64,000 nt of DNA, from contig CDPCPM010000021.1 in NCBI GenBank assembly GCA_976551045.1, forward strand, positions 1,116,001-1,180,000. The letters run 5' to 3'. Below the pieces are notes generated by a model. It did not search any database. It saw only the letters and a program-made list of their open reading frames with translations, and had not been told where the DNA came from. Positions within the stretch are counted from its first letter, which is position 1. Each line of letters opens with the position of its first letter. Positions 27,500 through 62,865 of the stretch are shown here, piece after piece. Position numbers and translations under genes: made by a program. Source of the DNA: Glaucostegus cemiculus (lineage: Eukaryota).

Positions 27500-27720
27500 A
27501 GTAAAAACAAAACATGTTGGAAACCTCCAGCAGGTCTGGCAATATCTGTGGAGAGAGAAATAATGTCGACATTTCAGGTCAGAGACCTTTTATCAGAACC
27601 AGAAATCGATCATGTTTTAAGCCGTAGTGAGGAGGGTTGGGGAGAGAGGCAAGGGGAACATCTGAAATAGGTTAGTCTAAGAGAGACTGAATGATAATAA
27701 AAGCGGTGGCGATGTCAGGC
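27500..27720 (-). mobile_element. Penelope-like element 3' terminus with hammerhead remnant
   Basis: tgttggaaacctccagcaggtctggcaatatctgtggagagagaaa. The minus strand 27599-27565 reads gtt CTGATAA A AGGTC tct GACCT GAAA TGTC gac. Confidence 0.75.
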
Positions 27721-28074
27721 AAGATCAGGTGTTGCTTTTCAAACACTATTTCTTGTCTCCGGCTCTTTTCTGCTGATAGAAACACCTTCTTTTTCCCTCC
27801 CCAACCACAATCTTCTCTAGGATAGAAATTTGCCCCCAGTCACTTGCAGTGAACATGCTTCCAAAGTTCAGTTCCATTTAAATCAATGGAATGAAACATC
27901 AAAAATTCAAAGCACCACCCAACCATGATTATATAGCATGTTTGCAAGCAAATGAGAACAAATTTCATGTGCAAAGGGTAAACCTCCTAAGTATGTGGCA
28001 AGTTTAACAAAGCACACAGCACAACAACCTGTACGGATTAGACAATCCTGGAATATTACTGAAAAATAAGTATC

Positions 28075-28170
28075 AGCTCTGATACAAGATCATTAACATG
28101 AAGTACTAATCTTGTCTCTCTCTCCACACATGCTGCCTGACTTGCTGGATTTTTCCAGCATTTTCTAGGT
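28075..28170 (+). mobile_element. Penelope-like terminus, strongly decayed
   Basis: ctctccacacatgctgcctgacttgctggatttttccagcattttct is shared with the other termini. Confidence 0.6.
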
Positions 28171-31100
28171 TCATTGAAAAAGCAAAATATGGAAACGCAG
28201 ATTTGAATTTGTGAAAGGGAAAGTTGGAGCTGGTGGCAGACAATGCGATGTACAATGTGGGATTAACAGATGGAATGGATTTCCAGGTGGAATATTGAAG
28301 CTAAAACCAGCAACCCATCATTTCAGAAACAATCAGATGTTACAGTGGGGGTAGGGGTAAGTGGAAGGTCATTCTGGATGAATGAACTAAGAGAGGCAAA
28401 ATGACCTTCCTCATCCAATTTAATCTTGTGATATGAATTTAAGCTCCCAGGGGTGACAGAATAGTGTCCCTAGGGAGACATTAACCTAAAAAAAAATGAA
28501 ACCCAAAGGGTTAAAGCCCCCATTACAATAACAGGCTGAGGAATGTCAAATGAACTCATCAAGCATTTGTTCCCTAATGTCACCAGCAGTAATATGTAAT
28601 CTTAGAGCTTCAGTACGGACACGAGCGGAATCAGGAAACATCTGTATGAGGTCAGGGGATTCAGAAACTGACTGATCAATCATTCAAATACAATTCCTAT
28701 TATATTTTAAATAAATTTTATTCCAAAGGCTATACTTCAAAAAGCTGGAAGAATTTATTTTTAGCAGGATGTTGTACAGGATTTTAAAGACTTGGGCTCT
28801 GTAGCTGAAGCAGCAAACATTCCACTGTGGAGGATCTCAGGCTGAATTTGTTGGTTTGTTTTCTCCATTCTGATCCTCCTCTAATTCTGCGACCCATTTT
28901 TAAACAAAAATACATGGGCTGCTTTGCACATTGACCAGCTTCATTTTATAATCTATCTGAGACTCACAAAGCCAGATGCCAGACCTCAACCCATCTCTTG
29001 CTTTACTGTGTCTGACCCTGGAGACATTTGTGATGATTCAAGTCAAACTCAACCAGGGCTCACCTCCTGCCTCCCTGCTGTTTTATCACCAGATTGAAAT
29101 CATACATCCATATAACCCAATAGCCTTTCTCCTGGGTGCTAGTTTCAAAAATGGGGCAGTGTAATCCAACTGAGAAGATGGATCTGACCCACACAGTTCT
29201 TCCAGCTATCCATTTGGAAGCAATCTCTTGCATGAGACTTGGAAAAAAAAATCTTCAAAGCCAGCATACTGTGTACAAATAAAAGAACCTAACCAAGGCT
29301 ATTCAGTATGTTCTTTTTAATGACAGGAATTTATTATATTATAAGGAAACCTTCATCTTGTTATACAATATCAGCAAATTAAAATAGATTTTTGGATGAA
29401 GGGTGAATAAAACCAATTTCAAGACCATGCTGTTTGACGATTTAATTTTGGTCTCTCACTGCTTACTCCTCTTCTACTGCCTGACACAAAGTAAAATTCA
29501 ATACTTCAAGGACTATAATAACATATCTGAAAGTCTCAACAGACTGTAGTATATAGCCCTGGGTGCATGCACATTATTATAAGGAGAGATTTGTGCGGCT
29601 TCTCGAATAATTTTCTTAAGAGAGTGGTGTTCATCCTAGCACAATGGAACACGCATAATTTGCATGTGCTAGACGTATAAAAAGATGCTTTTCATTGTTA
29701 GTCTCAATATCTCCGTTTCGTTTTCTACTAATTGAAGGTTGGGGCAAAAATCCCTGAAGGTCAGTAAATTCATTATCAAGCCACTGGATGATTTGCAAAG
29801 TCAGATGTGTATTAATTTTGGGATCTTGCATAATACTGTAATGGTACAGTATACACAGTCCTGGTATTTCCCATCCACATCCAAACCCCGAACCACCCCA
29901 AGCATCCAGTTGCTCATTCTAACCTCCTTGGGACACACCAAAAGGCCTGCTGTGAGGCTGGCAGATCAAAATGAACTTTGCCAATGGAGCAAGCAGCCAG
30001 TGAGCTGTAACAGGTGTCTGTGGCTCACCATGAATATGTACATGAGGTCTGAGAAGCAATTCATGACAAACCTCAGGGCTTGGTTTGGATGTGAGCTGCC
30101 TCAGGAGGGCTGTGCCTGATTCTAAAAGCACCCTACCTTAAAGTCAGGTGTGAACTATATTTGATATTGTTTATTTTCTTTTGGGAGTCTTACACTCTGC
30201 TTGATTGGGTTGTGGGTTGGGTAGGAATGGTGGGGTAAAGGCTTAACGGGCATGAAAAAATTTGCTGATGACACTGTTCTCGATTCTGGCAAAGCAACAA
30301 GCTATATCTCTAACTGAGATATATGCTACACCATAGTGAGGTACAGTGGTGGGGGTGGGGGGGGGTAAGGCAGTGGTTGTTAGTATTGGCTGGAGTGCGA
30401 GGCAAGGTGGGCTGTTTGCTGCCTATTTTTCTTTTTATCTATTGTGTTTATGGAATGTGTTTTTCGACAATCACCATCATGTAACTTAACATCCAAATGT
30501 GAATCCTTAGACATCTGCTCTGTCTTGTCTTTCGTAACAGGAGACATGGTTAGACCCAAGTCATTCAGAACAGATCGCCTTCAAATGCACTGACTATGCC
30601 AACACTTATTTTATTAACTTTCCCAGGTAAACTCCTTGGATAAGCAAATTCATGAATTTAATTTGATTATTCGAGGCCTATTAACATAAAGCAAAGCTGC
30701 AAGATCTATTTTTCAGTTCTGAAGCATACACAGCACACATTCAAAGCATCACCTTTTTGCTCAGTGTTAATCAGATGGGCTCCATTCTAATCAACCATAA
30801 AAACTACCGTAACACTTCACAGACCCCATGATTCAAATAAAGTTTTCCTCTTGTCACCCCATTCAAAAATCCTCTTGGATCTTGCTTGGATATAATAGGC
30901 TTACTGGCAAATCCTCTGAATCTCAGAAGACAAGCTAACTATTGGAGGGTTATTTCTATGTCTTAAAGGATCGGTGCAGCAAATTTCAAAATCTTATTAG
31001 TTTTGCTCATTTGGAACATTCACCATTGGCTGTTAAAGAGCAAAATATGTTTTGACAAAGCTTTACAGGAAACAATAAGAATCAGTTGAAATTATCTGTA

Positions 31101-32754
31101 TTTCAGTGTAATTTGTATCTGCCTAACTGTAATGTAATAACTGTTTAGAAGAATAAAGTAATGCCCTGGACAATGCAGATACTTCTGTCATTCATTATAA
31201 GATCTTTTGGTGAAGTAAGGAAGATGTGGCTACAAGCACTTGTCCTGCTGATTCTGAGAGTCAATGGAACAATTAGAGGCTGCTCCTCCCTGCTATCACA
31301 ACACATATGCAAGCATAAGCAGCAGGCTGCCAAAACGAAATTGTGATACAAGTACACTCAACTTGTCTCACATTTTCTATTGGTCCTTTAGGGTTTTCAT
31401 TTTCACACCAGCTGATGGAGTCCAAGTGGGATGGGCTGATGGGGTGTAGATCAATACATTAAGATATGGAGATTGATCAATTCCCTCAGTGACCACATTA
31501 ACAGAGTCCTAAATGTGAACTCTGACCAGTGGAATGGCTTAAATTCTATTCAACCTCACCATTTTCAAAATAAGAGTAATGCAGGTCAAAGGTCTCTGTT
31601 TCCTATTAATTAGTGTGGTTTTCCTTTGGGAGACTAACTGTACAGCTAAATAACCCTGCTTGTCAATAGCACAATCTGCATTCATGTACAAATTTTCAGC
31701 CTGCAAGTACTTCCTCATACATGTGTCACATGCATCTTGAAAATCTGCACTGGGAAAAAAATGTTTATGCACCAAAGAGCCTGCATTACTCTATTTTAAA
31801 ATTATGAAATGGAGAAACTACAGTTCATTAACTGGCTAAAGTGCAGCTTGACTGATGAAACTCTGCAATGTAGGTCCCTAATGAACTGTGTCTGAACATT
31901 TTCCATGCACTTGCCTGTTTTATGTTTAATGACCAATGGACAGTTTCATAAATTAACTATTGCTGATCAGAAATCTGATGTGCTGGAAGCAGTCACTGCT
32001 ACCCTTACAAAAATGTCATGTCAGCATCTGTACTGAACATTTACCAAACAGGTTCTTAGTCTTGATGAGAAACTCATTTTGATGCCAATAAATGTGGAAC
32101 CACAAACTTCTTTATCTCACTTATTGATTTTCTTTTTTAAGCACTCAGTAGGTGATGGGAATATTGAAACATTGGTATATCAGTGCTGGGAATATGAAAA
32201 TATTGATATATTGACCATAAGAAAAATCAATGATCTATGTTAATTCAGCACGATATGGCTACAAATCTGTTGAAGATGAAGTAATCATTGGAATTATCAA
32301 GATTGTGTCAGGAAGGTCAGGCAAATCGATCAATCCTTTTGAAAATCAACATGTAATAAGCACAATATGTGTTTCTCTGCAGCAGTCCTGCAGAGATCTG
32401 GAGCGCGAGACTAGAAGGTATATCAGCACCAAAGTGTAAGTGAAGCTTTTATCCATTGATCCACAATACATCTATGCTGTGCTTCTACATGACTAACGGA
32501 GAAGTATTGTACATTTTGGTATCTGATATGTGAGCTGCAATGTGAGGGGAGAGGCTGTTGAGAGGAGTTTGCGTGTACAGGAGGGAGCTCACTAACGTGC
32601 TTGCTTCATTATTTAACTATTTGAAAGGGGCAGAAATGTATTAACATTGGAGGTACATAATTACCAGATTAGACTTTGTAGTGCATACTGTGGGATAGAA
32701 AATTGCCTAAGATACCATCCATCCTTACACTGAAGTCAAGCAAACTGAATATCA

Positions 32755-32998
32755 GGTAGAAATCAACAAGAAAACTACAGATGCTGGAAACTCAAAATGA
32801 AAACAGAAAACGTTGGGAACACTGATGAGGTCAGGCAGCATCTGTGAAAATTGAAAAAGTTAACATTATGGATCAGGAGTTCTTCATCAGATGTTCTGTT
32901 CGGATGAATGGTCCCAGACCTGAAACATTAACTGTTTCACTTTCCACAGATGCTGCCTGACCTGTTGAATGTTTCCAGCACTTCTCTATTTTTATTTC
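32755..32998. mobile_element. Foldback (head-to-head) pair of Penelope-like termini, each with a hammerhead remnant
   Basis: Left ggtcaggcagcatctgtgaaaa pairs with right tttccacagatgctgcctgacc. The right arm 32898-32932 reads gtt CGGATGA A TGGTC cca GACCT GAAA CATT aac. Possible TSD aatatca at 32748-32754 and 32999-33005. Confidence 0.8.
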
Positions 32999-34524
32999 AA
33001 TATCATCTTCACCCATTTTGCATTCCTTTCTGAGACAAATTAAAATTCATCCCTTGGCTACACCGATATCACGTTTTGATACTTCCTAATTTTTTTGTGC
33101 TGATAACCCAAGTATAAGAGTTTTCTACAAATCACTTTACCAGATGTTTCAGAATGAGAAGCTACTACCATTTTAAAAGCTGTATGAGACCTCTAGCTTT
33201 CATATAATTATTAAGCGTCAAGCAACCAGTGCAATAAGAACAGAAAGCATACCTTCTCAGTTTAGGGAAATCACAAACTCCTCCTTTCAGCAGCATAAAG
33301 ATGCTGACAATTTACACAAAATCAAACTTCTTTCATTTGCATTCCAACAATTTTAGGCAAATACAACCAATTAGACCTAGAATAACTCACCTCAATCTTC
33401 ATTTAATGACCCATTAAAACTGTTCTGCTGTACTGACAAGCTGGATTTACAAAGTAGCTACACAAAGTTATTTGATTTGTGCCACTTCTGAAATACAGTC
33501 TCTGGGCAGATCATGGAAAAGGAACTAATAATGATAAGTACATGGTCATGAAAACAAATGTTCAGCAATAAAATCAAAGGCAGACTTCAACAGATACCTG
33601 ATAACTAATATTGATAATCACCATTGACATTTCAATGACTCCAGTCTTACTAACATTTAATTAAAGGACTCTAATTAGTTCAGCAAAACAGGAGCATTTA
33701 CAAGATTATCTCTGACTTGTATATAAATGAATGTGGCACATATTATGGTTGGGGAGGTACTGCAGTTGTGACTAATATTCAGTAATGAGCAGCATAAAAA
33801 AGGTCTGGTGGATCGCAGTCAGCAACAGACGTGCCATCAGATGACACCTCTGTTTTATGCCAAGGTTTTGTGCCTCATCAAAGCAGCATGTGCATGAACT
33901 GCTCCCTCCTTGCTGCTAGCATTTTTTGTTTATGCAATTCTGCAGTGAGAATGAAAGCCCTAAATCTATCCTTTTAACACAGTCACCCCACACAGGGCAC
34001 AACACACATTTCCTTCCTACTGTCTGTATCTGAGCTACATCACAGACTTCTGGTCTCCTGCCTGCAAGTCTAACCTCAGCTCTTTGAAGACCCTGGGTGA
34101 CAGGGTGGAACTGAATAAAGGATGAGTGCTCAGTAAAGCAGATGGAGGAGTGGTGGATCCTTAACAACAGCAGTGATATAGGGATCTCTTGGCCGTCACT
34201 TTGACAAGCTAACAAACACTAACCCAACAAAAAGGTTCATTTGATGCTTCCTTCTCAGTGCAGTTGGAGAAACGTTTGGTCTTACAATGAATAGTACTGT
34301 GAGGGTCATCAATCGGTACCCAATGAAAGAAAATCCATACAGCCTACTGTACATCTTCTGCACTGCCTGTGTCAAGCACAGAGCAAACCATTTTGTAGTG
34401 TTCAATTGATTTGTTTTTTTTCCCCTGTAGAGAGGCATTCTTCATCAATGGATTTCCGCTTGCGAGACAGAATTTCCGGTGCCTAAACTACTGCTGGAAG
34501 TATGATCAAAAACAGTATCAAAAT

Positions 34525-34888
34525 GCATTCATTCCCTCCACCACTGGCATACCATGGCTGCAGTGTGCATCATCTACAAAATGCTCTATATTTAATCAGG
34601 AAGCACCTCCCAAAAACCCCAGGACCTCTGTTACCATGAAGAGCAAGAGCATGGGGACATCACCACCTGCAGGCTCCCTTTCAAGTCTAATGCCATTCTG
34701 ATTTGGAAATTCATCCGAATCTAACTCCCTTAACTTTCTACTCAATATACTGGAAGTAGATTCACTGGAAGAACTGCAGCGGTTCAAATAGGTGGCTTAC
34801 CACCACCCTCTCAAAAGTGGTTAGGGATTGGTAATAAATCTTGGCCTTGCAGTCAATGCCCATATCCCAATAATGAATTTAAAAAAGG
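34525..34888 (+). mobile_element. 3' end of the second LINE family (same as 18452-19445)
   Basis: attccctccaccactggcatacc..gaactgcagcggttcaaataggtggcttaccaccaccctctc..ttagggattggtaataaatcttggccttgcagtcaatgcccatatcccaataatgaatttaaaaaa. Confidence 0.8.
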
Positions 34889-35309
34889 AGGATGAATGAA
34901 TTGAAAATGGTTGGAAAGCGGTGAGCATGTTTTCTTTGCTTTTAAAGGGCGTTACAAAAGTGCAATCAGCGAAAGCAATTTTGAGTGCTTGGCCAGGATT
35001 TTGTAGGCAGGGGAGAAGTGATGGGTCTTGCCACTAACATTGGAGAAAGCTGCCAAAAAGGATCTCATGATCTCAGTGGTATTGGCTTCCCCTTCCCTAT
35101 GTCTCTGCTGCCAGGTCAAAATGGATCACTGGCATTCAACAACAATGATGTCATCAGCTGGGCTGAGCAGCAAACCACACTGAGACACCAAGCTGTGAAG
35201 TATAAAGCACATTTTTTAGTGACTAAAGCCTGAATATTTTAAGCATCTTATAGTGAATGAAATGAAGTTTGGAGAACATACACATTGATAGAATGACACA
35301 TGAATGATA

Positions 35310-35425
35310 GAAAAATAGGGGGTTATGTGGGAGAGAAGGGTTAGATAGATCTTAGAGCAGGATAAAATGTCGGCACAACATTGTGGGCTGAAGGGCCTGT
35401 ACTGTGCTGTAGTGTTCTATTGTAC
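35310..35425 (+). mobile_element. CR1 3' tail
   Basis: gtcggcacaacattgtgggctgaagggcctgtactgtgctgtagtgttctat matches the tails at 1260-1310 and 52045-52080. Confidence 0.8.
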
Positions 35426-35936
35426 TAAGGTAAAAGATTATATATCGTAAGCAGCTTTCTTAAATAAAAAGGAAATATTTCAAAATCATCCATCATTTCA
35501 ATAATTCTTCATAAGTAACTTTTTAAGATTTATTTTCACTTAAAATTAACTGGTGAAAAAAAAGACTTGATTTTCTCCTAAATTTTTACTGCCATTGCCA
35601 TCACTGGAGTTGCCATCTAATCTTGTTTCTGACTATGACGGTTATTTGGCTCAGGTATGGATTAATTAGATGGTATTTGTGTAAGGGTTACCAATCCTTC
35701 ACAAATTGCTCTGGAGTCATTAGGAATTCAAGATTAATCTCCTGGACACTGCTGCAGTCAAACCTGGGAAGAAAGTCACTGGGGTGTTGAAACAGAATCA
35801 ATGTTTTTGTCAGTTTCTTTGAACAGGTTACTTATTAGTAGTGAAAAGAATTTAGGAATTAAAAAAGGCTCTTTTGGGTGGGGCAGTTGGGAGCGGAGGG
35901 AGGCGAGTCATGTGATAAAAAAATCCAGGTTCATAT

Positions 35937-35974: not shown

Positions 35975-35979
35975 GGTAG

Positions 35980-36679
35980 CTTTTTCTCAAACATATATTT
36001 TACTCATAATTTGTACAGGACATGTCTTTCTCTACCATCACTTTACCATCAATTCAAAACATTCTGCTGCAATACCTCATGCTTGCTCCTTAAACGATTC
36101 ATTCATGAAGCATTTGAGAATCTGTTCCTGCAGTCCCCTCCCCCTAGCTCAGTGGCAACAGAACCCTCTGTCCTACCCCACAGATCCTTTGCAGTGACTC
36201 CACTGAGCTTCAGTGCATCCTTCGGCATGTACTTCTGCACCTTGGAATGTGCCAATTATTTGCGGACATAAACTTACACTGGAAGACCAAAGCACAGATT
36301 TCACCAAGTTGATAATCTTCCAGCAGCAGTTGGTGTTTGCCGCAGTATTCCTTCTTCAGCCCTTTGCCTCTTCTACCCGTCACCTCTCAGTTTATTACAT
36401 CTTCTCTCCTCCCCCACCCACTAACTTTCACCCCCCTCACCTGCACTTGCCTATCACCTGAACTCACCTATCCCCTCTTTGCCTTGTGTACTCCTCCCCC
36501 TCCCCCCATCTTCTTATTTTGGCTTCTACCCTCTTCCTTTCCAGTCCTGACGAAGGGTCTTGGCCCAAAATGTCAACTGTTTATTTCCCTCCATAGATGC
36601 TGCCTGACCTGAGTTCCTCCAGCAATTTTTGTGCATTGCTCCAGATTCCAGCATCTGCAGAATTTCTTGTGTCTTGTGT
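35980..36679 (+). mobile_element. Penelope-like element remnant with pyrimidine-rich UTR, hammerhead motif and candidate 10-bp TSD
   Basis: attgaggtag at 35970-35979 and 36680-36689; hammerhead-like 36542-36579 cagtc CTGACGA A GGGTC tt GGCCC AAAA TGTC aactg; possible YIG-motif remnant tacactggaagaccaaagcacagatt at 36275-36300. Confidence 0.7.
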
Positions 36680-39274: not shown

Positions 39275-39410
39275 AAATAAAATCAGAAAATGCTGGGAAC
39301 TTTCAACAGATCAGGGAGGAATAGAGCCAACACTTCAGGTTAGTGTCTTTTCATCAAAGGCAGAATGACAGATCATTAACTTGCAATGCTAACTATTTCT
39401 TTTCACTGCT
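39275..39410. mobile_element. Very decayed foldback pair of Penelope-like termini
   Basis: aaatcagaaaatgctgggaac..acttcaggttagtgtcttttcatca then gatcattaacttgcaatgctaactatttct; same layout as 32755-32998. Confidence 0.5.
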
Positions 39411-40560: not shown

Positions 40561-40589
40561 GAAAGAATTAATTGACAAGGTTAAAGGGA

Positions 40590-41390
40590 ATCTGAAACAA
40601 AAGCAGAAAATGCTGAACACTTCCAGCATCAGTGGGGAGAGAAACTTTGGGTCAAGCACCTCAACAGAACTGGAAAAGTGAGAAGACAAGTGTGTTCAAA
40701 GTTTCAGGGGGTGGGGGAAGAGAAAGAGTAGAAATAGATATCGGTCAAAGGTTGCAGGCAAAAGTTGTCAAGATAACAATTACAAGCTGTCCCTGGGTCA
40801 TGGACACCTGACTGATGGACAATCCTATGTATGAACGAGCTCCCATAATATAATTAAATTCAAAAGTTCGACGTATGTACCTATGAAGAGCATAGTCACA
40901 GAAGTGATTGCAGATTACCCACTTTTAGTAATTGTTATTTCTGAGCAGCTTTATTTGCTTTCGATGCCATCCATTACAATACTATGGAGATATGTTTATC
41001 ATGTCGAGTCACTTTCGTGTATTTTTTGACTTATGGACAAAAATCGACTGATGGACGCCTGTAAAAATGGAATCCGTTCGTTACCTGGGGATGGTCTGTG
41101 CTTTAAAACTGGCATTTTGAGACAGAAAGGAAAAATGAAGCAAATTGAAAAAGAAAGGTACAGCCATATCAGTAAAGACAGGGTAAAAAAAGAGATTCAT
41201 CTGAAATTGTTAAATTCAATATTCAATCCTAATGCCGATAGCGTGCCCAGGAAGAAGACGAGTTGATGTTGAGCTTATGCTGGGCATCTTTTCAGCAATA
41301 TAGAAGGCTGATGAACAAGAAGTCAGAGTGGGAGTAGGACAGAGAATTAAAATGATCGGAGACTGGAAGTCCCAGGCCACCCTTGTATGC
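40590..41390 (-). mobile_element. Penelope-like element remnant (GIY-YIG C-terminus plus 3' terminus), split by a MITE
   Basis: Minus 41369-41198 translates LPVSDHFNSLSYSHSDFLFISLLYC*KDAQHKL / HQLVFFLGTLSALGLNIEFNNFR*, a typical Penelope endonuclease C-terminus; terminus aaagcagaaaatgctg at about 40600. Confidence 0.8.
40783..41098. mobile_element. Tigger/pogo-like (Tc1-mariner) non-autonomous MITE, about 316 bp
   Basis: Imperfect TIRs caagctgtccctgggtcatggac and revcomp cagaccatccccaggtaacgaac; flanks TA (40781-2) and TG (41099-100); internal repeats gactgatggac/gacttatggac. Confidence 0.7.
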
Positions 41391-44300: not shown

Positions 44301-45264
44301 ATTTGATCTGTGCTCGGCATGGCTGGTGGTGGGATTTTTAAAGTATTAGACTGAGGGAGATTTATAAAATGTAAAAGTGACGTCCCGTAGGGAACACTTC
44401 AAATGGCGCATCATTCACTACTTTCAGCATGATGTACTATTTTTTTTTTGAGAGTTAATAACATAGGTTGTGACTTTTTGATCCAATTTCTGTTGGCAAG
44501 TAAATAATGAAATAATGGGTGATGGGCATATTGATGACATCATCTTGAGCGAATTCCAGTGGAAAATGACACCTGCATTAGGGTGAATCATGACAGGAAG
44601 TTCCTGATCATGATGTCTCAATATGAAGTGGTTTCAAGCACTTCAGAACATACAGAAAATACACTTGCTGAGAGATTTACACATAAAACAGATAAAAGCA
44701 GGTCTAACTTCCAGGCATACAGGACCACATGCAGGTATTCCTCTGGTATCAAACATAAAGTGAATAGAATTTGTGACTGGGCAACAGCTGTAGAAAATTG
44801 TGCCCTGTCACAATATTCAATAGAACAGACTTAAAACCGTGAAATTATCAAAACTTTCTCCTCAGATAATGTCCTTCACAACAGGAAAATCACAGAGAAA
44901 TTCACTGAACAGCATCACATGCTGCACCAAGGATTTTGGATTATTAGCTATTACTCAGATTGTGCAGGCATGGAATATGGACTATTCGTCAAACCTCAAG
45001 AACATTGAAAAGTCATGTCAAAATCAGTAAACAATAAGAAGTGATAGTTATCATTCATAATCAGTCTGTGGGAATCCTGATCCAAGTAGAAAGTTGCATT
45101 CATCTATGGAGCACAGATGAAGCATCTCAAAATTGAGAAAAATCAAAGCACACCACTTCTAGTACTGACTTTACTGAAAGGCAACAAAACTCTGATAATT
45201 CACTATCCACTTGATTGGAATTGTCAATCATTTAGCATCTAGCTCTTCAGGTGATATTTCTCCT

Positions 45265-45505
45265 GCTCCCTTTAAATTCACAGGGATGCCATTCCAGGGC
45301 CCCTTCTTGTGCCTCCTTGAAATTCACTGAGGTCCTGCTTCCCATGGCTCCTTGAAACTCGTAGGGCCCTGTTTCTCACATTCCCTTTAAATTCACTGGG
45401 GTACTGTTTCCCATAGTCTATTTAAATTCATTGGGGCCCTATTCCATGTGCTCCCTTTAGACTCATCAGAACCCATTGCCTAGAGTCCCTTGAAATTTAC
45501 TGGAT
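45265..45505. repeat. Degenerate minisatellite, unit about 34-35 bp, about 7 copies
   Basis: Recurrent ctccctttaaattcactgggg(t/c)cctgtttcccat at about 45267, 45312, 45347, 45381, 45416, 45451 and 45486. Confidence 0.85.
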
Positions 45506-47885: not shown

Positions 47886-48992
47886 CCACTTTCTGCAGAA
47901 GAGCAACAAATAATGAGCGAGGTTTCTCACAGGATGCCTTTGTGTGTAATTTCATAGAATAACCTCAGTACTACAAAAACAAGGAGTCAGTTGTACCTTA
48001 GCAGGAAGCACTCGAGCCTCTGAGTCACAAAGCTGTACAGCGAAATACCGTCGCAGACACTCAAGTGCAAAATTTAGGTTGATTTTCCAATGCTGTGCCA
48101 AGGGAGTTACTTGTCCTTGGATGATTATGCTTTATTTGAACAGAAGCAAATTTTAGAAGCAAAGGACAAAGCACAGCTGCCCATTGTCATAATTTTGGTT
48201 GGTTCAAGTTAGGCATCATCAATTGCAATTTTAGCACAAGCAGATTAATTTCTACCTCTTTGGATGCCAATATGGCTGTAACACTTTCCACATTCATTGA
48301 ACAGCAAAAGCTCTTCATGAGCTGAGTAACGGCTACTTAACTGCAATTTCTTCTTTATTTCAGACTATGATTTGTGGAAATACACCAGGCTGATGTTGTC
48401 AGGCAAAGGTACAGTAAGAAAGCATCAATAATGTTCCAGCAGCTGATGGCGATCAACATAGCAACAAGCTACTGCTCGGCAACCAAATTACAGCTTTAAC
48501 TGTATTAAAACATCAAATCAAGAACTACTGGGTCTGTGCTAGGAATTCCATCCGCTTTATTGGTCTCCCTGCACATGTGTTAAAATTTTGAGCTTCCTTG
48601 ATAGGTTAAGGCTTATTTTAGGGAGACTGATTTGAAATTTTGATTGTCCATGCACAGAGCCATGGTCTGCTCTAAACCACTCACCTAATCTCATGCCTCA
48701 TGGTTATATGCAAGTTTCTATGCTACTTTTACAAACAGAGTTTTAGTAATGAATATCAGTCTTTCCATTAAAGCTGATGTTTTATGTATTCTAAGCCGTA
48801 CTGTGCTCATATCCTTTTTTACAGAAACAACTGCTTGTGTCCAGTCATTCTCAATGTCTGGTTACAGACTTCAGCCCTCTTTCATAGCACTTAGCTCATT
48901 AGGTTATTACATAGCACTGTGCAAACATGAATTAATGAACTTATACTAATAATTTTTGGGGTTTACACCAACATCAATAGCAGACAAGATTA

Positions 48993-49165
48993 AAACAATG
49001 CTGGAACTAATCAGCAGGTCAAGCAGCATCTGTAGAAAAGTTACCAAGTTAATATTTCAGGTCAGTGACCTTTCATCAATTCAAAATTATTGACCTGAAA
49101 TGTGAGTTCTGTTTTCTCCCCTCCTGACGTATTTTGGATTTCCAGCAGATTTGTGTTTTCAGATT
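48993..49165. mobile_element. Foldback pair of Penelope-like termini with hammerhead remnant
   Basis: tgctggaactaatcagcaggtcaagcagcatctgtag..atttcaggtcagtgacctttcatcaa, then tgacctgaaatg..atttccagca. The minus strand reads TTGATGA A AGGTC act GACCT GAAA TATT aac. Confidence 0.75.
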
Positions 49166-49169
49166 ATAA

Positions 49170-50191: not shown

Positions 50192-50282
50192 GAGACTGCA
50201 GATGGAATATGGAGCAACACACTAGATGCTGGAGGAACTCAATGGGTCAGGCAGCATCAATGGAGGGAAATGGACAGTCAGG
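50192..50282 (-). mobile_element. Penelope-like terminus fragment
   Basis: gactgcagatggaatatggagcaacac..tgctggaggaactcaatgggtcaggcagcatcaatggagggaaatggacagtca is the reverse complement of about 36575-36665. Confidence 0.75.
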
Positions 50283-51399: not shown

Positions 51400-52080
51400 G
51401 GAAGTCAAGTAGGGGTGGAACATATACACTAAATGAATGTTATATAAGGAATGTTGACAAACGGAGGGATGCAGGTCCATTATGGCCTGAAAGTGGCAAC
51501 ACAGATCGATAGGGTGAAGAATTAGTTCAGGGCATACAATATAAAAGTTGGGACTTTGCAACTTTACAAAATACCAGTTAGACGGCACTTGGGAGTATTG
51601 TGTGTCTGATTGCCACACTATAAGAAGGATGTGGTTTCACTGGAGAGAGTGCAGAGGAGATTCACCAGGATATTGTCTGGATTGGAGGACTTTAGTTATG
51701 GGGAATTAATAGATAGGCTAGGTTTGTTTTCCCTGGAGTGAAAGAGGCTGAGTGGTGACCTGATAAGGTATATAAAATGTTAAGAGATATAGATTGGGTA
51801 AATAGAAGCTTTTTCCCATAGCAAGGGTGTTAAAAACAACAGAGCATAGGTTTACAGTGAGAGGAAGGAGTTATAAACGAGATTTGAAGGGCAAGTTCTT
51901 TTTCTTTTTACACAGCAAGTGGCTGATGTGTGGAACTCACTGTCAGAGGAGATGGTGGAGTCAGATAAAAACACTATGCTTAGGAATATGGATCTAATAC
52001 AGGAAAATGGGATTAATGTAAATGGGCAAAAAGGTCACATGGATGTGGTGGGCCAAAGGGCCTGTTCCTGTGCTTTATGA
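51400..52080 (+). mobile_element. CR1 LINE 3' fragment, close relative of 1-1312
   Basis: gcaactttacaaa, ggagagagtgcagaggagattcaccaggat, gagcataggtt..gtgagaggaaggagtt and tggtgggccaaagggcc are shared almost verbatim with the copy at 727-1290. Confidence 0.92.
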
Positions 52081-52084
52081 ATAA

Positions 52085-52480: not shown

Positions 52481-52578
52481 GAGACACAACAGACTGCAGA
52501 TGCTGGAGCAACACACAAAGTACTGGAGGAACTCAGTGGGTCGAGCGGCATCTGTGGGGGGGAATTCCCCCAGCAGAT
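52481..52578 (-). mobile_element. Penelope-like terminus fragment ending in a small hairpin
   Basis: gagacacaacagactgcagatgctggagcaacacacaaagtactggaggaactcagtgggtcgagcggcatctgtggggggg-aatt-cccccagcagat. Confidence 0.75.
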
Positions 52579-55364: not shown

Positions 55365-55615
55365 AAAAGCTGGTATCAGTAATGGTGACTTTTTGGATTG
55401 TCATAAAACCCATCTGGTTCACTAATGTCCTTCAAGGAAGGAAATCTACCACCCTGGCCCAACCTGGCTGACGTACGACTCCAGATGAACCAATATAGCT
55501 GACTCTTAAAGCGCCTTTGAAATGGTCCAACAAGCTGCCTGGTTCAGGGACAATTTAGGATGGGCAATAAATCTTGACCTGGCCAGTGACTTCCACATCC
55601 CATGCACATAATAGA
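55365..55615 (+). mobile_element. 5'-truncated SINE sharing its 3' tail with the second LINE family
   Basis: aaaacccatctggttcactaatgtccttcaaggaaggaaatct..; the tail ttaggatgggcaataaatcttgacctggccagtgacttccacatcccatg aligns to 34821-34870. Confidence 0.85.
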
Positions 55616-55966
55616 TAATGATGAATTCACTGTACATACCCAGCATCTATTTTTATTTCACTGGGATGTCTTTTGCTCAGCTTGATTGGGATGTCCTTGA
55701 TCATTAATTCACAGGTTCTTACCAGTGAACCAGTGTAATGGGCACTGCATTCCTGGGATGTGAAGAAAAGAGACTGAAGAGATACCAATAATCAAGCCAA
55801 CTCAACCCCAAGCTTCACATGCATCTCCAATGAAGAGAGATTGAGTGGATTTGGATGTTTATTTGAAGGGGTTTAGAAGAAAGGGGAATAACAGGATAAA
55901 CATTGTGGGGCTCTTTCCCTCTAGAACCAGATGTCACATTTATAGAGAAAGGACTGCACTGAACTT

Positions 55967-56215
55967 CTTTTAAAATGTTATTTACAGCGTAGTAACAGGC
56001 CCTTTCAGCCCAACGAGTCCGCGCCGCCCATTTTAAAACCCCAAATTAACCTACCCATACGTCTTTTAGACTGTGGGAGGAAACCCGAGCACCCGGAGGA
56101 AACCCATGTAAACACGGGAGAATGTACAAACTCCTTACAGTCAGCGATGGGAATCGAACCCTGATCGCTGGCGCTGTAACAGCGTCGCACTAACTGCTAT
56201 GCTATCGTGCCGCCC
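55967..56215 (-). mobile_element. Young tRNA-derived V-SINE (HE1-like), full length
   Basis: The minus strand starts GGGCGGCACGATAGCATAGCAGTTAG (A box 56194-56204), has B box GGTTCGATTCC (56150-56160), V-domain TGGGTTTCCTCCGGGTGCTCGGGTTTCCTCCCACA and a CR1-like tail GGGCTGAAAGGGCCTGTTACTACGCTGTA; many CpGs retained. Confidence 0.93.
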
Positions 56216-56224
56216 ACAAAATAA

Positions 56225-56435
56225 AAAATTTTCACTCAAAGGGACAGAATTTTTGGAATTCTCTATCCCAGAGAACTGACTGCTCCACCAATGTATATAT
56301 TAAGACTAAGAGAGAGATTTAGGGATCAAAGGGAATCAAGGAATATAGAGGTGGGACAAGAAAGTGTTGAGTTGGAAAATTAGTCACAAACTTAATGAAT
56401 GATGGAGCAGGCTCAAGGGCCAAGTTTCCACTTGT
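56225..56435 (+). mobile_element. CR1 3' fragment (probably the host of the V-SINE insertion)
   Basis: ttcactcaaaggg..ttttggaattctctatcccagaga..aaagggaatcaaggaatata..aatgaatgatggagcaggctcaagggcc. Confidence 0.75.
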
Positions 56436-56554
56436 TATGCGGTTATTGTTGAAACTTATGATGTCATTTCATTTGACTTTATTTGGAAAGCTACTATCCC
56501 TTGAACTTTGCTTCCTCCTCTCATTTTTTCCCCAGTTTGCTGCCTCCGTGGCCT

Positions 56555-56890
56555 TGTCTGCTCTATCTCAGGTCCTAAGTTCCTTGGAGATATCTGTGTT
56601 CCTCTAATTCTCATCCCTCATGCATTCTTGATTTCTATTGCCCCCTAATATTGACGTCTGTGCTTTCCGCTTGCAAGCATTAAATCTCTTAAATTCACTC
56701 CCCAAGTTTCTCCACATCTCTAACCCTCTTTTCAATTTTAAGACACCCTTTAAACCTCTTTGTCCAGGCTTTTGGTCATCTTTCCTAATGCCTCCAAATT
56801 GTGCCTCAAAGTTAAATGTTCCTTGATAACATTGATGTAAAATGGTGAAGTTTTATTATGTTAAACATGCTATATAAATGTAATATGTCA
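56555..56890 (+). mobile_element. L2 LINE 3' end
   Basis: Parallels 52790-53050 and ends ttttattatgttaaacatgctatataaatgtaatatgt. Confidence 0.75.
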
Positions 56891-57479
56891 CCACATAGCC
56901 TCCTTTGGTCAGGATTATAGAAAGTCTAAGCATGAGCAAGCTGTTAATGCCAGCTTTGAAAGTTGCTCCAATCAATTAACATAATTCCAACTGCAACACA
57001 ATGAATAAGCCACAATCCATTTACCTTTCTTTAGAAGTGAAAAGTTAGGAGACTGCAACTTTCTCCACCAGACCCTGATTTGGCCTGATTAGGTTCACAA
57101 GCTGAATATTATTAGATATTCATCTCAATACATGATGGTGGTTATTACCGAATCACGGAGAAACATTACAGCTTTGGACAAAACCATTTGTCAGTTCATA
57201 CTTCTTCCTAATTTCAAGAGAAGCAGCTCTCCTGTGTTGTTGCCCTTAATGTGAAAATGCTTGCAGACTGACTCGTCTCTCCATTTCTTCATTTGTGGGC
57301 TAGCAACTTCAATTGTAATTCCCCATATCACCTCTCTGGGGCTCTGCAAACATATACTAATACCCATACTCACCTCACACCAACGTCAGTTTTGCAGCCA
57401 TCAGGTATTCAAATCCACTGATTTAGCTTCAAGGCAGATCTCCCAGCACTGCAACTCCAGCACCTCTCCCCCCTAATGA

Positions 57480-57800
57480 ATCCCATTATCATCTTTCTTA
57501 CTTTTCAGATTCCAGTACTAGTAGCCTTGTATTCCCACTTATCACTCTCCTGGCTGTCTTCACCTTCACTTTGCCCCCATCTGGCTCCACCTGCCTTTTC
57601 TTTGCCTGTCTCCACCTATTATCCACCTGTCTGTTTCCCAACTCCACCCCTCCCCCATCCAGATTCATCAGCCCAACATCCTTCACCATTCCTTGGTCCA
57701 CCAATCACCTTCTGGCCCCTGTCTCACCACTTCCCCTCTCCTCTTCATACCGTCATCTTGAAATATTGACAATTCCTCTCCCTCCACCTAATTGGTTGAA
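57480..57800 (+). mobile_element. Penelope-like pyrimidine-rich 3' region, decayed
   Basis: C/T-rich text with ccacctattatccacctg and caccaatcacc, followed by tgaaatattgacaattcctctcctccac; resembles 36400-36600 and 62640-62880. Confidence 0.55.
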
Positions 57801-57989
57801 TTAAGTTGACATGCACACACACTGCTAATCAACACTGATGCCACTGTCAGTAAACAAGCAATTAATCCCCACACCCGACAAACAAGTGGGTAAAAGGAGG
57901 TACCTGACTGGAAAGGTATAAAAAATGTAAAGTAAGAAGCTAATAGCTATTTCAATGTAGTTTTTTCCCCTCTGACCTGGATAGTCTTA

Positions 57990-58365
57990 TCCAGAGCTAC
58001 AAGCATGAGATCTAGACTGACTTTCTAATGTGGTCCTGAGGAAATACTTAATTGTTAGAGGTTCCAAACTTCCACTGAAGTGTTAAACTGAAGGCCTGTC
58101 TGCCTCTCTGCTGGGAATAAAATATTTCAGGGCACCATTCTGCAGAGGAGCCAGAGGCTTCTTCTCAATGCCCTGACCAATGTTTATCCTCAGCTAATAT
58201 TACTAAATAGCTTGCTGTTTATTCAGACCTTGATGAATGCAAACTACTCCCTGTGATTCCTGCATTACCACATTGAGGATTCCAAAGTACCTCAGAGGCT
58301 TTCCTAATCTCCAAGGTTCCAGTGACGTTGTGAATAGCACCCTATAGATAAAGCCCTCTTTCACA
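57990..58365 (+). mobile_element. Deu-domain SINE, old
   Basis: atctagactgac..gtgttaaactgaaggcctgtctgcctctct..ggcaccattctgcagaggagc..gccctgaccaatgtttatcctcag. Confidence 0.7.
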
Positions 58366-58679
58366 ATTTAATTTTGATAGTGTATCATCCAAAATAAAAT
58401 AATTATACTTGATGATTAAAATAAACCAAAAACCTATTATAATAAACTCCAATATTAATATCCCACCAGTATGAAATTTAATAGTACACTCATTCTAACA
58501 CAATTATAATGCTATAACTTTCTGTAATAACTCAATTTAATATTAATAAGTCTTAATTAAAACATCTTTCATTTTCTAACCTTACAGAATAACATTCAAG
58601 AGTTTTGCAAGCCTCTTAATACAGCATATTATGTTATCCAAAACCTCCTTTAAGAAATGTACAGTTATATTGAATGTTG

Positions 58680-58835
58680 CATATGAACCTCCCATTGTAA
58701 TGAACATTGATACTCTGAACCTCACACTATGACTTATCATAATGAGAACTTCCTGTTGTTAATGAACACTGATAATATGACCCTCCCAATATAAACAACA
58801 TTGAGAGTGTGAATCTCCTGTTATCACAAGCTCCA
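58680..58835. repeat. Degenerate tandem repeat, unit about 30-32 bp, about 5 copies
   Basis: atatgaacctcccattgtaatgaacattgata / ctctgaacctcacactatg.. / tgagaacttcctgttgttaatgaacactgata / atatgaccctcccaatataaacaacattgaga / gtgtgaatctcctgtt. Confidence 0.75.
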
Positions 58836-61800
58836 ATCTTATAAACTTTTAATATTCAAATCCTTCCGATTTATTAAATGCTATTATATCCATTGCCCTA
58901 AATATATAACAACCTACAGCGTAACAAGTTTCTTGTTATTGACAAATCGCTTCTCCCACTTCAGAAGAAACCCTTTCATATAAATAAAAGGGAGCTCCAG
59001 CCTTGATAAGACAACCTTCAATAATAAGGACTTTTATGACTATTGCAAGTTTGTAATCAGGAGATCTAAAACCACCAGGAGGCCACTGGCTCCTACAGTA
59101 CTTTGGGATCAATAGCTCATTATAGTTCTAAGTTAAGGAGTTACTATATAGCTCAGGCCTGTGAGTTATTTTCTAACGCACACTACAGAGATTTACACTG
59201 TCTCTTGTGTCTATTTTGAGGGTGGCACCTGCAGCGTGTGTATTGTGAAGTACCGTCTGAAAACCCTCTCCTCACTCTTTGCTGCTTTTGAAGGGAAGCA
59301 CATAAAGGGATTGAGTCTTATAAGTTCCTGACCATCTGGATTTAATGTGTACGCCAGACAGGTGAATCCTGAAGAAATCTGAACAATCTGAATTTAGAAA
59401 CTCTTACAGTGGAAACAGTTTTGTGCTTGAGGAATTTTTGTCTCAACAAAGACTCAGCACAATGCATCTTTGGCAATAAAACATAATTTCCTGCTTAGGA
59501 TATTTCTTATTGTGTTCTAAGAATGGAATGCAGTTCTCAACAAGAATATGATGAGTAAACAACTTTGACACAATCACACTTATCTTCTATAAATGGTCTG
59601 TGTGTGTGATCAAGAAAATAGAAATCAATTGCTGCCATTGGTTACTGGAAAGAAATGCCTGATGAAAGTATTGGTAAGAAGCTCCCACAGTAACTGCACA
59701 ATTTCTGAAATGAGAGTTGATCGAAGACTTCCTTCCACAATCCATTTGGTGTTTAAACATCAGTGAAAGTGTTGGAGGAACAGAGTTAAGGAGCAGCATT
59801 CAGATACAGACTACAATTAATTTGATTTATGTATAGACTCACAATGTAGGAAAGAGCAGTCTAGTTTCAGTTGAATTTTGCTTCTGTAAGTGCCTCACCA
59901 ATAAGTACAGGAATTGTTGCTGTTGTGTGACTCAGTCATCCTGGTTTGTTAGGCATATTTCTTTATTCTCTTTAATAAAGAGGAAACTAGAGAGGACAAA
60001 GCGTTTCTAAACTACCGCAGAAAGGTGGTTGTGTTTCTCCCACTTTTTTTTATACAGGCTATTTTCCATGCAATGTCACATTGCCATCGGGTCAATGATT
60101 ACAGATTACCTGCTATTCATCTTAATAAAAGCTTAATAGCTGTAGTAATTGGAAAAAAAATTAAATAGGAATGTTTCACTTTGGTTAAATATCCATTGTA
60201 GTTCTAGTACCTCATGTCATTTTTAGGAAGGTACTATAACAAAGTACAATCATTTTATATATGCTGCTGAAATCAGAGCCTGCCTCTCTGATATAAGCCT
60301 AGTCGACCTTGATTTTATATGTGGGGTATGGGTTGGATTGGGTTTATGACCTTACAGTTTAGGTTTGACCATGCTATGCCATGCTGACTTGGTACCATCC
60401 AGGTCAGGTGATTTTGTTAGTAAATAACTGTCATAAAGCTGAGAACTTCAGCTGTATTTATTTGGTGTTCTGTTCTCAACAGATCAATAGCATGTTTGAT
60501 GTTGTTATACAGTGAAAGTCCAATCATGTCAGGTTAGGCTGAAAAATGGAAAAAAAAATTAAGTACTCGAATTTGAATCAGGTTTGGACTAGCTGTGATC
60601 AGGAGAGGTTTTAATTCTGTTTTACTTGAAATGATTCTACACTGGAAATAAGATGGTCAAGGAAAGAATGGTTGGTCACAGGTCTATCATATCAGCCCTG
60701 AACAGTGTTGTGTCACTCCTGGTGTGCTCACATGGTTCTTCCTCACATCATCTTGGCCACTCCTCTCCAGGAGTGGATGGTGGAAATGGTAAGAGGGTAC
60801 ATGTTGTGTGAGCCGCCAGGAGGGGTTATATATTGCATTGATATTTGACTGTTCCTAGCAGAGGCATTAATGCCTCCAGAGCTACTTAAACTACAGGTCT
60901 TACTATTAAAGCTTAAGACCTACATCAATCTGATCTACACCAGTACTTCAAGTTCAGGCACTCAGTGGTTCCACCTCTTAAGCTTCAATAGTAACATTCT
61001 GTCATGCTGCTTAATTCTGAGGAGACAACTCGGGGATAAAAAGTGAGCTAAGAATGCTATTAAGTGGACGTGGTAATGACAGATGAAATTTAATCAGAAT
61101 AGTTTAAACATCTGTACATAGAAACAAAACAAAATTTACATTCATTATTATTTCATGAAAAGAGCCAACAGAAGAAAGGATGAAGTTGAAAGAGGCCTTT
61201 CAGTGGATTTGATGCTGGACATCTATGGCCACCTTCAGAGCAAGGGTAAACAGAGTAAATGGCCAAAATCCAAAAGCTAGTTAGAGTAAAGATCTGCTTG
61301 GGAATAAAATTAAAAGCTGACCCTAGCTGATCCAACCACAGCCAATCCGAACCCAATCTCTGAGTCAACCCAATCCAATATTATACATAATATTGGTCTG
61401 TTTGAGGCTGAAGCATTAAATATTGATCAAGAGGAGAGGACACATGCAATAATACTAAGAAAATTATCTTGATTTAAACTACTGAGTCTGACCCAACCTG
61501 AACCAAACTGGAGTGTTTTATCAATGCATTCACGGGACCCAAACCATGCACGGAGCCAGATCCTTTCAGGCTTGGGTCAAAGAGACGGGTCCAATTTAGA
61601 GGAATTTCTTATTGCGTTCTGCAAGTGAAATGTCAGCAGACATTTCCAGTACTGAGTGCATTTGTGGTCATTCAAACAAGAGGGAGTTCCATGCCTTGGT
61701 GCAAATTAAAAGACAAACTTGACTCTGACCCCTCAGAAATACAAAAACTATGACAGGTTTTCAGCTTTGAAGGGAAGTGATTTCATACAGGCGCAGGAGA

Positions 61801-62359
61801 TAGTTAATAGTATGGAGTAGGCAGATTCAGAACACACTTCAAAGCAAATCTTAACAGTCGGACACAGTTTCAAAATGCACACAATAAGACATATGTTAAC
61901 ATGTGGACATCAAGCAGGCCTCCTGCCCCTGTGGACAAGTATAGCAGGCAAGAATATAGATCTGAGGGGGATTCAAGTCAAGGAGCTTGTATCCTCCTTT
62001 GCCCAGAATGGTTGAATTTGGGAACAGGAATAAAACAATCCACTGGACTGTTCTTGAGCTAATCTGATGTGCATATCACTCAGTTGCTACAAAGGGATGC
62101 AGTATATTTTGGATATTCAGTGTATGAATTGGAGTTGACTATCTTGCACTTTAGTGTGAAAAGTAAATGTATGTGACTGTTCCCTAAGTTTTTTCTATTC
62201 TACCTTTCATATTTGGTGATTAAATTCAATTCGCTTGCTTCCTTTAAGATTTCAATGGAGCCTGACAACATGGAAAGGAGCTTAATGCCCAGGTGCAAAA
62301 ACAACACGATGCTGGAGGGAATCAGCAGGCTAGGAAGCATCTGTGGAGAGAAACGAATG

Positions 62360-62393
62360 GTCAATGTTTCGGGTCAGGACCCTTCTTCAGGAC
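62360..62393 (-). ncRNA. Minimal type-I hammerhead ribozyme motif (core boxes intact, stem III decayed)
   Basis: Minus strand: gtc CTGAAGA A GGGTC ct GACCC GAAA CAT T gac. Confidence 0.7.
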
Positions 62394-62831
62394 TGAAGAT
62401 AGGAAAAGGGGAAGCCCAATATATAGGAGGGAAAAGCAGCGATAGATAGACAAAAGAGGGGAGGCAGGGGACCTTACAGCCTAATAGGATGAACATCGAA
62501 TTCTCCCACTTTAAATAAACCAACCACCCCCACCATGTCTATTTTATTTTCTTTCCTTTCCTAGCCCCTCTCTCTTTTTTCTCCTTGCCTATTTCTTCTT
62601 TTTTTCTCCCCCCTCTCCTCCCCTCCCCTCAAGGGGGTACCTGCCTCCATACCTGCGACCCATCCCCTGGTGGATCTGCTCTCCTCTCCTCCCCCACACC
62701 TGCCTATCACTCTCTCTTACCTGCATCTACCTATCACCACCTTGTGCCCACTCCACCTCCCCTCTTTTGTCCACCTATCACTGCTCTGTTTTTCCCTCCT
62801 ATATATTGGGCTTCCCCTTTTCCTATCTTCA

Positions 62832-62865
62832 GTCCTGAAGAAGGGTCCTGACCCAAAACATTGAC
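62832..62865 (+). ncRNA. Minimal type-I hammerhead ribozyme motif (G12>A, probably inactive)
   Basis: gtc CTGAAGA A GGGTC ct GACCC AAAA CAT T gac. Confidence 0.6.

Follow-up and report, generated by a model that had tools for sequence, protein, structure and literature searches.

Decayed minimal hammerhead motifs in the end repeat of a likely endonuclease-bearing Penelope-like element

The question raised by this locus is whether the hammerhead-like motifs scattered through the window (the whole stretch of 64,000 nucleotides that was analyzed) are a reservoir of working ribozymes or the remains of a mobile element. The motifs are very probably decayed minimal type-I hammerheads in the end repeat of a likely endonuclease-bearing Penelope-like element (PLE), present as short, often mirror-image, and likely inert insertions. 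The six stretches named in the original prediction were confirmed in position and strand, all shaped CUGANGA-A-stem II-GAAA-NN-UH, as was the worn minus-strand partner of the 32898 copy (C3 at 32890). They are carried by a repeat of about 105 nt, the motif plus about 70 nt, found as 14 pieces from about 10 insertions, with four head-to-head pairs among the pieces, one of them weak. A profile built from the six named copies recovered 13 pieces at E<0.01, including the six seeds, and none in each of 10 random windows; the motif family is above chance level. The predicted density of about one copy per 10 kb was too low if family pieces are counted (14 in 64 kb) but too high if intact motifs are (1 in 64 kb). 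Pieces other than those of the best-preserved insertion are as follows.

17931..17994 (+), very worn piece outside the range of the original prediction, profile E 1.7e-4
27496..27675 (-), family piece with motif 27565-27599, G8A, A10.1-U11.1 subfamily, head-to-head with 28074-28171
28074..28171 (+), worn family piece with motif 28076-28110, four core changes
32770..32893 (-), worn partner with motif 32859-32893, G12A and A13U
32894..32997 (+), family piece with motif 32898-32932, U4G, no 10.1-11.1 pair, adjoining the 32770..32893 piece back to back
36399..36665 (+), single 3'-end copy with motif 36544-36577, G12A, G10.1-C11.1 subfamily
39277..39360 (-), worn piece with motif 39326-39360, C3U and A15.1G
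40589..40717 (-), worn piece with deletions within the motif, profile E 0.0098
48982..49085 (-), family piece with motif 49048-49082, C3U, stem I broken, A10.1-U11.1 subfamily
49091..49158 (+), weak inverted partner with the 3' half of the motif only, profile E 0.1, aligned
50193..50279 (-), tail-side piece without motif, homology beginning at the first base past the predicted cut
52483..52563 (-), tail-side piece without motif

The insertion at 62283-62982 is the best preserved and has the full layout of a PLE insertion, with a target duplication of 11 bp, an inverted 5'-truncated copy, a tail of 46 nt on one side, and the stub of an endonuclease-like ORF.

62283..62293 (+), left target-site duplication of 11 bp, exact 11-nt repeat of 62972-62982
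62294..62465 (-), inverted 5'-truncated arm, end repeat without tail, 148 of 177 columns identical to the plus arm
62360..62393 (-), motif with intact core, C3 at 62390, G12 at 62370, predicted cut after 62363, G10.1-C11.1 subfamily
62468..62518 (+), 16-codon ORF stub (GTLQPNRMNIEFSHFK, stop), similar to the C terminus of PLE GIY-YIG endonucleases
62519..62925 (+), 3' region of the plus arm, rich in pyrimidines, with the end repeat (pLTR), matching 36399-36665 at E 6e-16
62832..62865 (+), motif changed by G12A at CpG position 62855, where the inverted arm retains G
62926..62971 (+), one-sided 3' tail of 46 nt, missing from the inverted arm
62972..62982 (+), right target-site duplication

We identify the element as a likely PLE because the target-site duplication, inverted truncated arm, and one-sided tail match the EN+ PLE unit as described in PMC3846280 (Arkhipova et al. 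2013) and PMC8557442 (Craig et al. 2021), which likewise has a head-to-head inverted 5'-truncated copy, a one-sided tail, and a target-site duplication of about 8–11 bp; the tail is 46 nt here compared with 30–40, and the window is without a full ORF. The call rests on this layout and the 16-residue stub, with no reverse transcriptase (RT) or full endonuclease linked to a motif in the window, where 265 frames gave four weak RT matches and three marginal others against Pfam. Published PLE endonuclease ends read E-x-x-W-I-x-x-LGT-x-x-P-x-GLN, and by eye the stub appears to resemble them, while it had no match in Pfam and neither GTLQP nor EQHLI matched exactly among the PLE peptides of the PMC8557442 supplement. 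Contigs from sequencing runs extend the stub upstream with letters reading EEQHLIFRLG, which likewise resemble the published ends; contig depth is very high across most of 62519-62925, and many contigs depart from the insertion at 62921-62926. Target-site duplications were clear at one of eight insertions examined, with none clear at the seven older ones. The longest identical run between the two arms is 65 nt. Over 37 nt the plus arm differs by A-to-G at four sites, and ADAR editing was weighed as their source, in the hairpin at 62.3-63.0 kb, and set aside; two of the four fit the contig subfamily form and the other arm, and two are left without explanation.

The original assignment to minimal type-I hammerheads of the PLE kind was borne out, in that descriptor, consensus, and the extra base after A9 all match. 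Such motifs (min-HHR) were described from metazoan pLTRs in 2014 by Cervera and De la Pena (PMC4209133), and those here are similar in being type I, with CUGANGA and one extra base, a 5-bp stem II, and GAAA-NN-UH without a real helix III, in a common form whose 15.2/16.2 is probably palindromic, in a short stem I, in occurring mostly solo or as opposite-strand pairs 100–700 bp apart, and probably in numbering thousands per genome (published counts are about 4,000 in coelacanth and 9,000 in Xenopus). Among the motifs of Fig. S3 in PMC4209133, that of oyster has nearly identical stems. Differences are that loop II is just 2–3 nt here and that one subfamily closes stem II with A-U as opposed to the usual G-C, although A-U also occurs in Fig. 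S3 in coelacanth 2, D. willistoni, and shrimp. Compared with the canonical type I hammerhead, the motifs have no helix III beyond A15.1-U16.1 and no Rfam matches at E<=1. Poseidon PAc of Anolis carolinensis (Frangieh et al. 2024), as presented in PMC11167929, has a hammerhead near the pLTR/ORF junction with short stems, as here, and an optional tail with an RT start site at each boundary, as is likely here; however, its ORF begins at stem II, whereas in the present family about 20 nt separate the cut site from the nearest conserved ATG, which follows an acceptor-like signal, and PAc has been assayed, with protein-assisted cutting. Fig. S3 of PMC4209133, with its 56 motifs, and Table S1 of that paper include no shark, ray, or chimaera, and a search of article texts, most of them open-access, found nothing on shark or ray hammerheads. 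A vertebrate source for the window is supported by a LINE fragment at 13679-14101, whose named relatives are limited to bowfin and crane, with no named match for the elasmobranch source given in the original prediction. The present data add one lineage of vertebrates, which is likely that of cartilaginous fish, to a class known since 2014.

The copies had been thought to share the consensus, but five of the six named ones have a change in the catalytic core (G8A, U4G, G12A, C3U with a broken stem I, and G12A at 27565, 32898, 36542, 49047, and 62832, respectively). Of the nine complete motifs, just one fits the published descriptor of minimal hammerheads, which runs stem I, CUGANGA, stem II, GAAANNUH, stem I, with its core intact, the other eight failing through core changes. 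In its strict form the descriptor had a single match in the window, at 62390 on the minus strand, compared with 0.01 on average over 100 dinucleotide shuffles, and allowing one core mismatch gave five matches, three of them family copies, compared with 0.17. The extra A between A9 and 10.1 is present in all nine complete copies. Variation between copies looks mostly like neutral decay after insertion, much of it at CpG. Changed sites were about as frequent in the core (13/99, 13%) as in the tail (51/318, 16%; p=0.53), a comparison of nine copies with little power in which subfamily differences inflate the tail figure. CpG observed/expected in the window is 0.18, and positions 15.2/16.2, written (C/U)(G/A) in the original prediction, read TG in four of nine copies, CA in three, TA in two, and CG in none, as expected from CpG decay. 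TA is itself palindromic and present in published motifs, and a change there need not be decay. Positions 15.2/16.2 are palindromic in two of nine copies, the intact-core copy (which reads CA) not among them, so that core and dimer palindrome are both intact in none. G12A was found in three of four copies with C11.1 and none of five with U11.1 (Fisher p=0.048, hand-computed). Folding of the whole insertion gave pairing probability 0 for stems I and II of the 62360 motif, which is predicted to be buried inside a hairpin of about 170 bp. With eight of nine cores broken and a hairpin predicted to enclose the remaining one, the dispersed copies are likely inert fossils. The proposed very large ribozyme reservoir therefore holds for motif fossils but not for working ribozymes, and counts of motif copies are not counts of ribozymes.

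Selection on RNA structure across subfamilies had been proposed from covariation in both stems, and this survives in part. In stem II, pair 10.1-11.1 is compensatory (G-C in five of 10 aligned copies, A-U in four, unpaired in one), but the contrast of GGGTC with GGCCC is a one-sided wobble. In stem I, pair 2.1-1.1 is compensatory (U-A in three, C-G in two, U-G in two, and unpaired in three of the 10), but the stem is paired in just 62% of cells. Of 500 shuffles, 11 attained the covariation score, more than the five or fewer of 500 that, according to the tool, related sequences may reach with no structure, and 79 of 500 attained the count of pairs changed on both sides. On the aligned sequences, we take the two compensatory pairs to be real, marking one split between two subfamilies, and because the copies are related the covarying cells amount to approximately one lineage split and not many events. 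U11.1 is a lineage state and not decay, since simple CpG decay would give a G-U closing pair at 10.1-11.1, which is absent from the aligned copies. The two pairs point to selection on master elements while the remaining variation looks like decay; the signal is of past selection on masters and not of a reservoir of working ribozymes.

Contigs of four runs have G at 16.2 in 64–68% of depth at 62365, among 40 variant rows listed of 137 that do not include G12, which suggests that the common family form keeps the palindrome. Those of the A-U subfamily mostly read AGUU-C ahead of the core, unlike the window copy, giving U2.1-A1.1 and C3; they were picked by likeness to the 49047 copy over a 52-nt stretch and are no independent test of 10.1-11.1. 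The 48982..49085 piece had 44–325 matching contigs per run in the four runs, and repeat depth in run X1 was about 1e4–1e5 times flank depth, which is not a copy number.

A mechanism consistent with these patterns can be outlined from PMC11167929 and PMC8557442 as follows. The PLE protein would nick DNA and start reverse transcription inside the RNA at two ends bounding the tail, with most copies stopping after 100–500 nt, so that the motif would be copied far more often than the ORF. In a master element, cutting after GUH would require a second copy to complete helix III through the ACGU palindrome, protein-aided folding, or both, and the swaps between G-C and A-U and between C-G and U-A would reflect selection on masters. 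Once a copy is inserted, decay at methyl-CpG would likely remove the palindrome (CG to TG or CA), together with the general base G12 in the G-C subfamily. Cleavage by PLE minimal hammerheads is poor in published work, dimers included (PMC4209133), and in Anolis the motif cut only when the protein of the element was present (PMC11167929), for which reason failure of a consensus dimer to cleave would be a weak refutation.

Alternatively, the short copies, chiefly of the A10.1-U11.1 subfamily, could be a non-autonomous SINE-like or retrozyme-like family that starts at the hammerhead and is mobilized in trans by PLE proteins, which we regard as rather unlikely and which would be compatible with a PLE origin. 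Past the A-U core, contig ends in all four runs agree for about 5–10 letters and then pass into low-agreement A/T-rich sequence, and many copies thus seem to begin just upstream; in the window, the alignment of three pieces begins no more than 7 nt from C3, and fold-back joints cluster at 62382-62395 (12 among the 15 listed of 302). However, five pieces run 30–360 nt further upstream, one into the ORF stub, and if RT initiates internally, close to the 5' end of a PLE transcript, as reported in PMC11167929, the same fixed-start stubs would arise with no need of a separate family. In favor of the alternative, a 2026 preprint on non-LTR retrozymes by Li, Clavereau and Pollet (bioRxiv 10.64898/2026.07.22.740005) derives the retrozymes of animals, which also have type I hammerheads, from PLE ends and reports them in the sole chondrichthyan genome sampled, but they are defined by tandem arrays with at least two complete motifs; there are no arrays among the 14 pieces and no same-strand complete motifs closer than 3.6 kb in the window.

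Within the preferred reading of a PLE end repeat, the role of the hammerhead is called unclear in PMC8557442, and cutting was dispensable for insertion in vitro in PMC11167929. A YAG behind a pyrimidine tract, followed by ATG, was found in six of nine complete copies. One speculation, which we hold to be improbable, is that the hammerhead lies within a PLE 5' intron, with the 3' strand of stem I as branch-point motif and the acceptor about 20 nt past the cut, so that cleavage and splicing would compete and decide between mRNA and reverse-transcription template. If this were true, cartilaginous fish, with tens of thousands of datable fossils in two subfamilies, would be the best system for PLE-hammerhead function, and such fossils could show whether insertions begin where the RNA is cut, as is seen in the 50279 copy. 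The modest value of the family is as material, in that very high copy number, a division into two subfamilies, fixed 5' starts, and a splice signal that overlaps could together allow the role of PLE hammerheads to be tested statistically.

That some dispersed copies are working, host-selected ribozymes cutting host transcripts is highly improbable. One copy does have a perfect core, and amniote intronic hammerheads are thought, according to PMC6155905, to be domesticated from retroelements, but apart from the eight broken cores, this intact 62360 copy has no stable helix III, its palindrome is lost, and its nearest same-strand partner motif is more than 13 kb away. A read-through transcript would make the complement of the motif first, and its stems I and II have a predicted pairing probability of 0. 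No host exon was recognized in the window, where a crude exon finder gave nothing convincing. It is hardly credible that the motif is a chance hairpin in an ordinary repeat and never was a ribozyme, since, although Rfam had no matches, the loose pattern CTGANGA..GAAA was at chance level (8 matches compared with 6.7 expected), and folding z-scores of the six named copies were -1.2 to +0.3, the strict descriptor matched against 0.01 expected, both core boxes, extra base, palindrome, and two compensatory pairs are in register, and such motifs are reported precisely from PLE end repeats.

Scans of collections gave no further copies in viral contigs, prokaryote genomes, or phages, and six metagenome loci matching a 21-nt tail motif were without a hammerhead upstream and were set aside as chance.

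The anatomy, subfamilies and broken cores of a repeat family carrying hammerhead-shaped motifs are established here, and the motifs are very probably decayed copies left by a Penelope-like element (PLE)-type process, with selection acting on master elements and decay following insertion. Six hammerhead-shaped stretches were found where the original prediction had placed them:

27565-27599 (-), hammerhead-shaped motif
32898-32932 (+), hammerhead-shaped motif
36542-36579 (+), hammerhead-shaped motif
about 49047-49080 (-), hammerhead-shaped motif
62360-62393 (-), hammerhead-shaped motif with intact core
62832-62865 (+), hammerhead-shaped motif

A profile built from these copies, each with 70 nt of downstream sequence, recovered 13 pieces in the window at E<0.01 (six being the seeds) and also a weak partner piece at 49091, with 0 matches in each of ten random windows. 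Since eight of the 14 pieces are joined in four head-to-head pairs, the set represents about 10 insertions. The repeat unit runs from the motif, complete in nine pieces, through a pyrimidine tract and CAG-ATG to ~45 nt more. A pyrimidine-rich stretch at 57380-57790 (+), part of which reads LQPSGIQI and which faintly matches the motif's 3′ half (57759-57787, family-profile E 0.06), is perhaps an older PLE end; nhmmer gave no confirmation of such an end there.

The insertion at 62283-62982 is bounded by an exact 11-bp target-site duplication and has three parts:

62294-62465, inverted arm, 148/177 columns identical to the forward arm
from 62468, forward arm, opening with 16 codons
46-nt tail, on one side of the insertion only

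The duplication, inverted arm and one-sided tail are the same as in the PLE insertion unit outlined in parts of PMC8557442 and PMC3846280; no clear duplication was seen at seven older family insertions. The 16 codons read GTLQPNRMNIEFSHFK and then stop, and upstream of them contigs carry on with letters reading EEQHLIFRLG. Matched by eye, the stub and these letters appear to resemble the end of PLE endonuclease domains, E-x-x-W-I-x-x-LGT-x-x-P-x-GLN (section of the PMC8557442 supplement); Pfam gave no match for the stub. A separate non-autonomous short family, itself compatible with a PLE-type origin, is rather unlikely. Contig depth in sequencing run X1 was 1e4-1e5 times higher in the repeat than in the flank, a ratio that is no copy number, so the repeat is taken only as very abundant. 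A 65-nt run (62371-62435, 62790-62854) is identical in the two arms, possibly through gene conversion, while nearer the tail the arms differ at numerous positions. Within 35 nt, TG replaces the CA of the family majority (93-97% in X1) twice, at 62880-62881 and 62911-62912 (+). TCCAGCA, repeated ~30 nt apart at 36617-36660 and 62905-62950 (+), appears to flank an optional tail and may mark two reverse transcription start sites. Run X4, of a different organism code, spans both insertion flanks (62200-62290 and 62979-63050), with an 8-nt insertion at 62288.

According to portions of PMC11167929, the protein of an Anolis element cuts AT-rich DNA and primes reverse transcription at two internal sites bounding the tail, the element's hammerhead cleaves only when the protein is present, and insertion in vitro does not require hammerhead cutting. 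By analogy, the family stubs would have been made by the same process; master elements would have kept the hammerhead fold under selection, and inserted copies would decay quickest at CpGs; the dimer palindrome and G12 happen to be among these sites. Homology of one motif-less piece (50193-50279, -) begins with the nucleotide that directly follows the predicted cut site, which is what reverse transcription of self-cleaved RNA would produce; it is a single case, three other truncated pieces beginning elsewhere.

The original prediction of hammerheads identified a real feature of the correct class but overstated function, as the core is altered in eight of nine complete motifs (G8A; four changes; G12A with A13U; U4G; G12A; C3U with A15.1G; C3U; G12A). 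Relative to the column majority, core and tail changed similarly (13/99 versus 51/318 positions, p=0.53), so that no copy-level selection is visible in this small test. The window has a CpG observed/expected ratio of 0.18; among the nine complete copies, dimer-palindrome positions 15.2/16.2 read TG in four, CA in three, TA in two and CG in none, and G12 was lost in 3/4 copies where C11.1 creates a CpG versus 0/5 with U11.1. The intact-core copy, 62360-62393 (-), has ACAU where the palindrome would stand; in contigs from four runs, G at 16.2 (62365) makes up 64-68% of depth. Its stem II had a pairing probability of about 0.3 alone and 0 within the insertion, and its stem I 0 in both; because the insertion is predicted to fold as a ~170-bp hairpin, the motif's own stems are predicted not to form there. 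None of the six seed copies folded better than shuffles, and minimal motifs are described in part of PMC4209133 as inactive monomers and weak dimers. A single intact core in 64 kb carries a Poisson interval of 0.03-5.6, which is not narrow enough to estimate the number genome-wide. That these are working ribozymes under host selection is very improbable.

Covariation was assessed in 10 aligned copies, one row (40645) being partial and badly aligned. Paired cells made up 74%, versus 23-46% in slid controls; of 500 shuffles, 11 reached the covariation score and 79 the count of two-sided pairs, which is not strong given related sequences. The signal is carried by stem II closing pair 10.1-11.1 (G-C in five, A-U in four) and stem I pair 2.1-1.1 (U-A in three, C-G in two, U-G in two, unpaired in three). 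No G-U occurred at 10.1-11.1 among these copies, which argues that A-U is a lineage state, not CpG decay. Contigs resembling the A-U form numbered 44, 325, 249 and 201 in four runs and mostly read AGUU-C ahead of the core, a stretch in which the copy in the window departs from them, and therefore U2.1-A1.1 and an intact C3 are assigned to that subfamily. Thus the two stem swaps originally proposed as covariation are real, but they reflect roughly a single divergence of master lineages.

A loose core pattern occurred at chance level in the window (8 versus 6.7), and the strict minimal-hammerhead descriptor from the PMC4209133 supplement matched once, at 62390 (-), where a mean of 0.01 was obtained over 100 shuffles; a chance origin of the motif is scarcely credible. 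By analogy, the family would work like metazoan PLE minimal hammerheads, whose descriptor the sequence of that copy fits. A canonical Rfam hammerhead was rejected, Rfam giving no match for the family motifs, as was a non-LTR retrozyme, there being no tandem array. The 56 motifs in the 2014 supplement (PMC4209133) include no chondrichthyan, and no publication on PLE hammerheads of sharks or rays turned up in a search largely outside subscription journals; in the portions available, a 2026 preprint (bioRxiv 10.64898/2026.07.22.740005) reports hammerhead retrozymes from one chondrichthyan genome and a whale-shark preprint describes PLE expansion in introns.

A YAG ~20 nt past the cut site, after the pyrimidine tract, is kept in 6/9 complete copies, preceded by a branch-point-like stretch overlapping stem I. 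On a crude scale, four of the five complete copies that were scored rank in the top 1% of the window's AG sites; contigs also hold a subfamily form without the putative acceptor AG. PLE 5′ introns are known, one in D. virilis ending against the motif (PMC4209133, in part). Competition between splicing and hammerhead cutting on one RNA may occur but is improbable.

Other repeats in the window were:

1-1230, 7660-8660, 13680-14930 and 51400-51970, CR1-like LINE fragments, mutual repeats with weak RVT_1 matches and vertebrate relatives
21900-23300 (+), disrupted LINE ORF matching RVT_1 weakly, presumably RTE-like
45249-45502, degraded tandem array with a unit of ~35 nt
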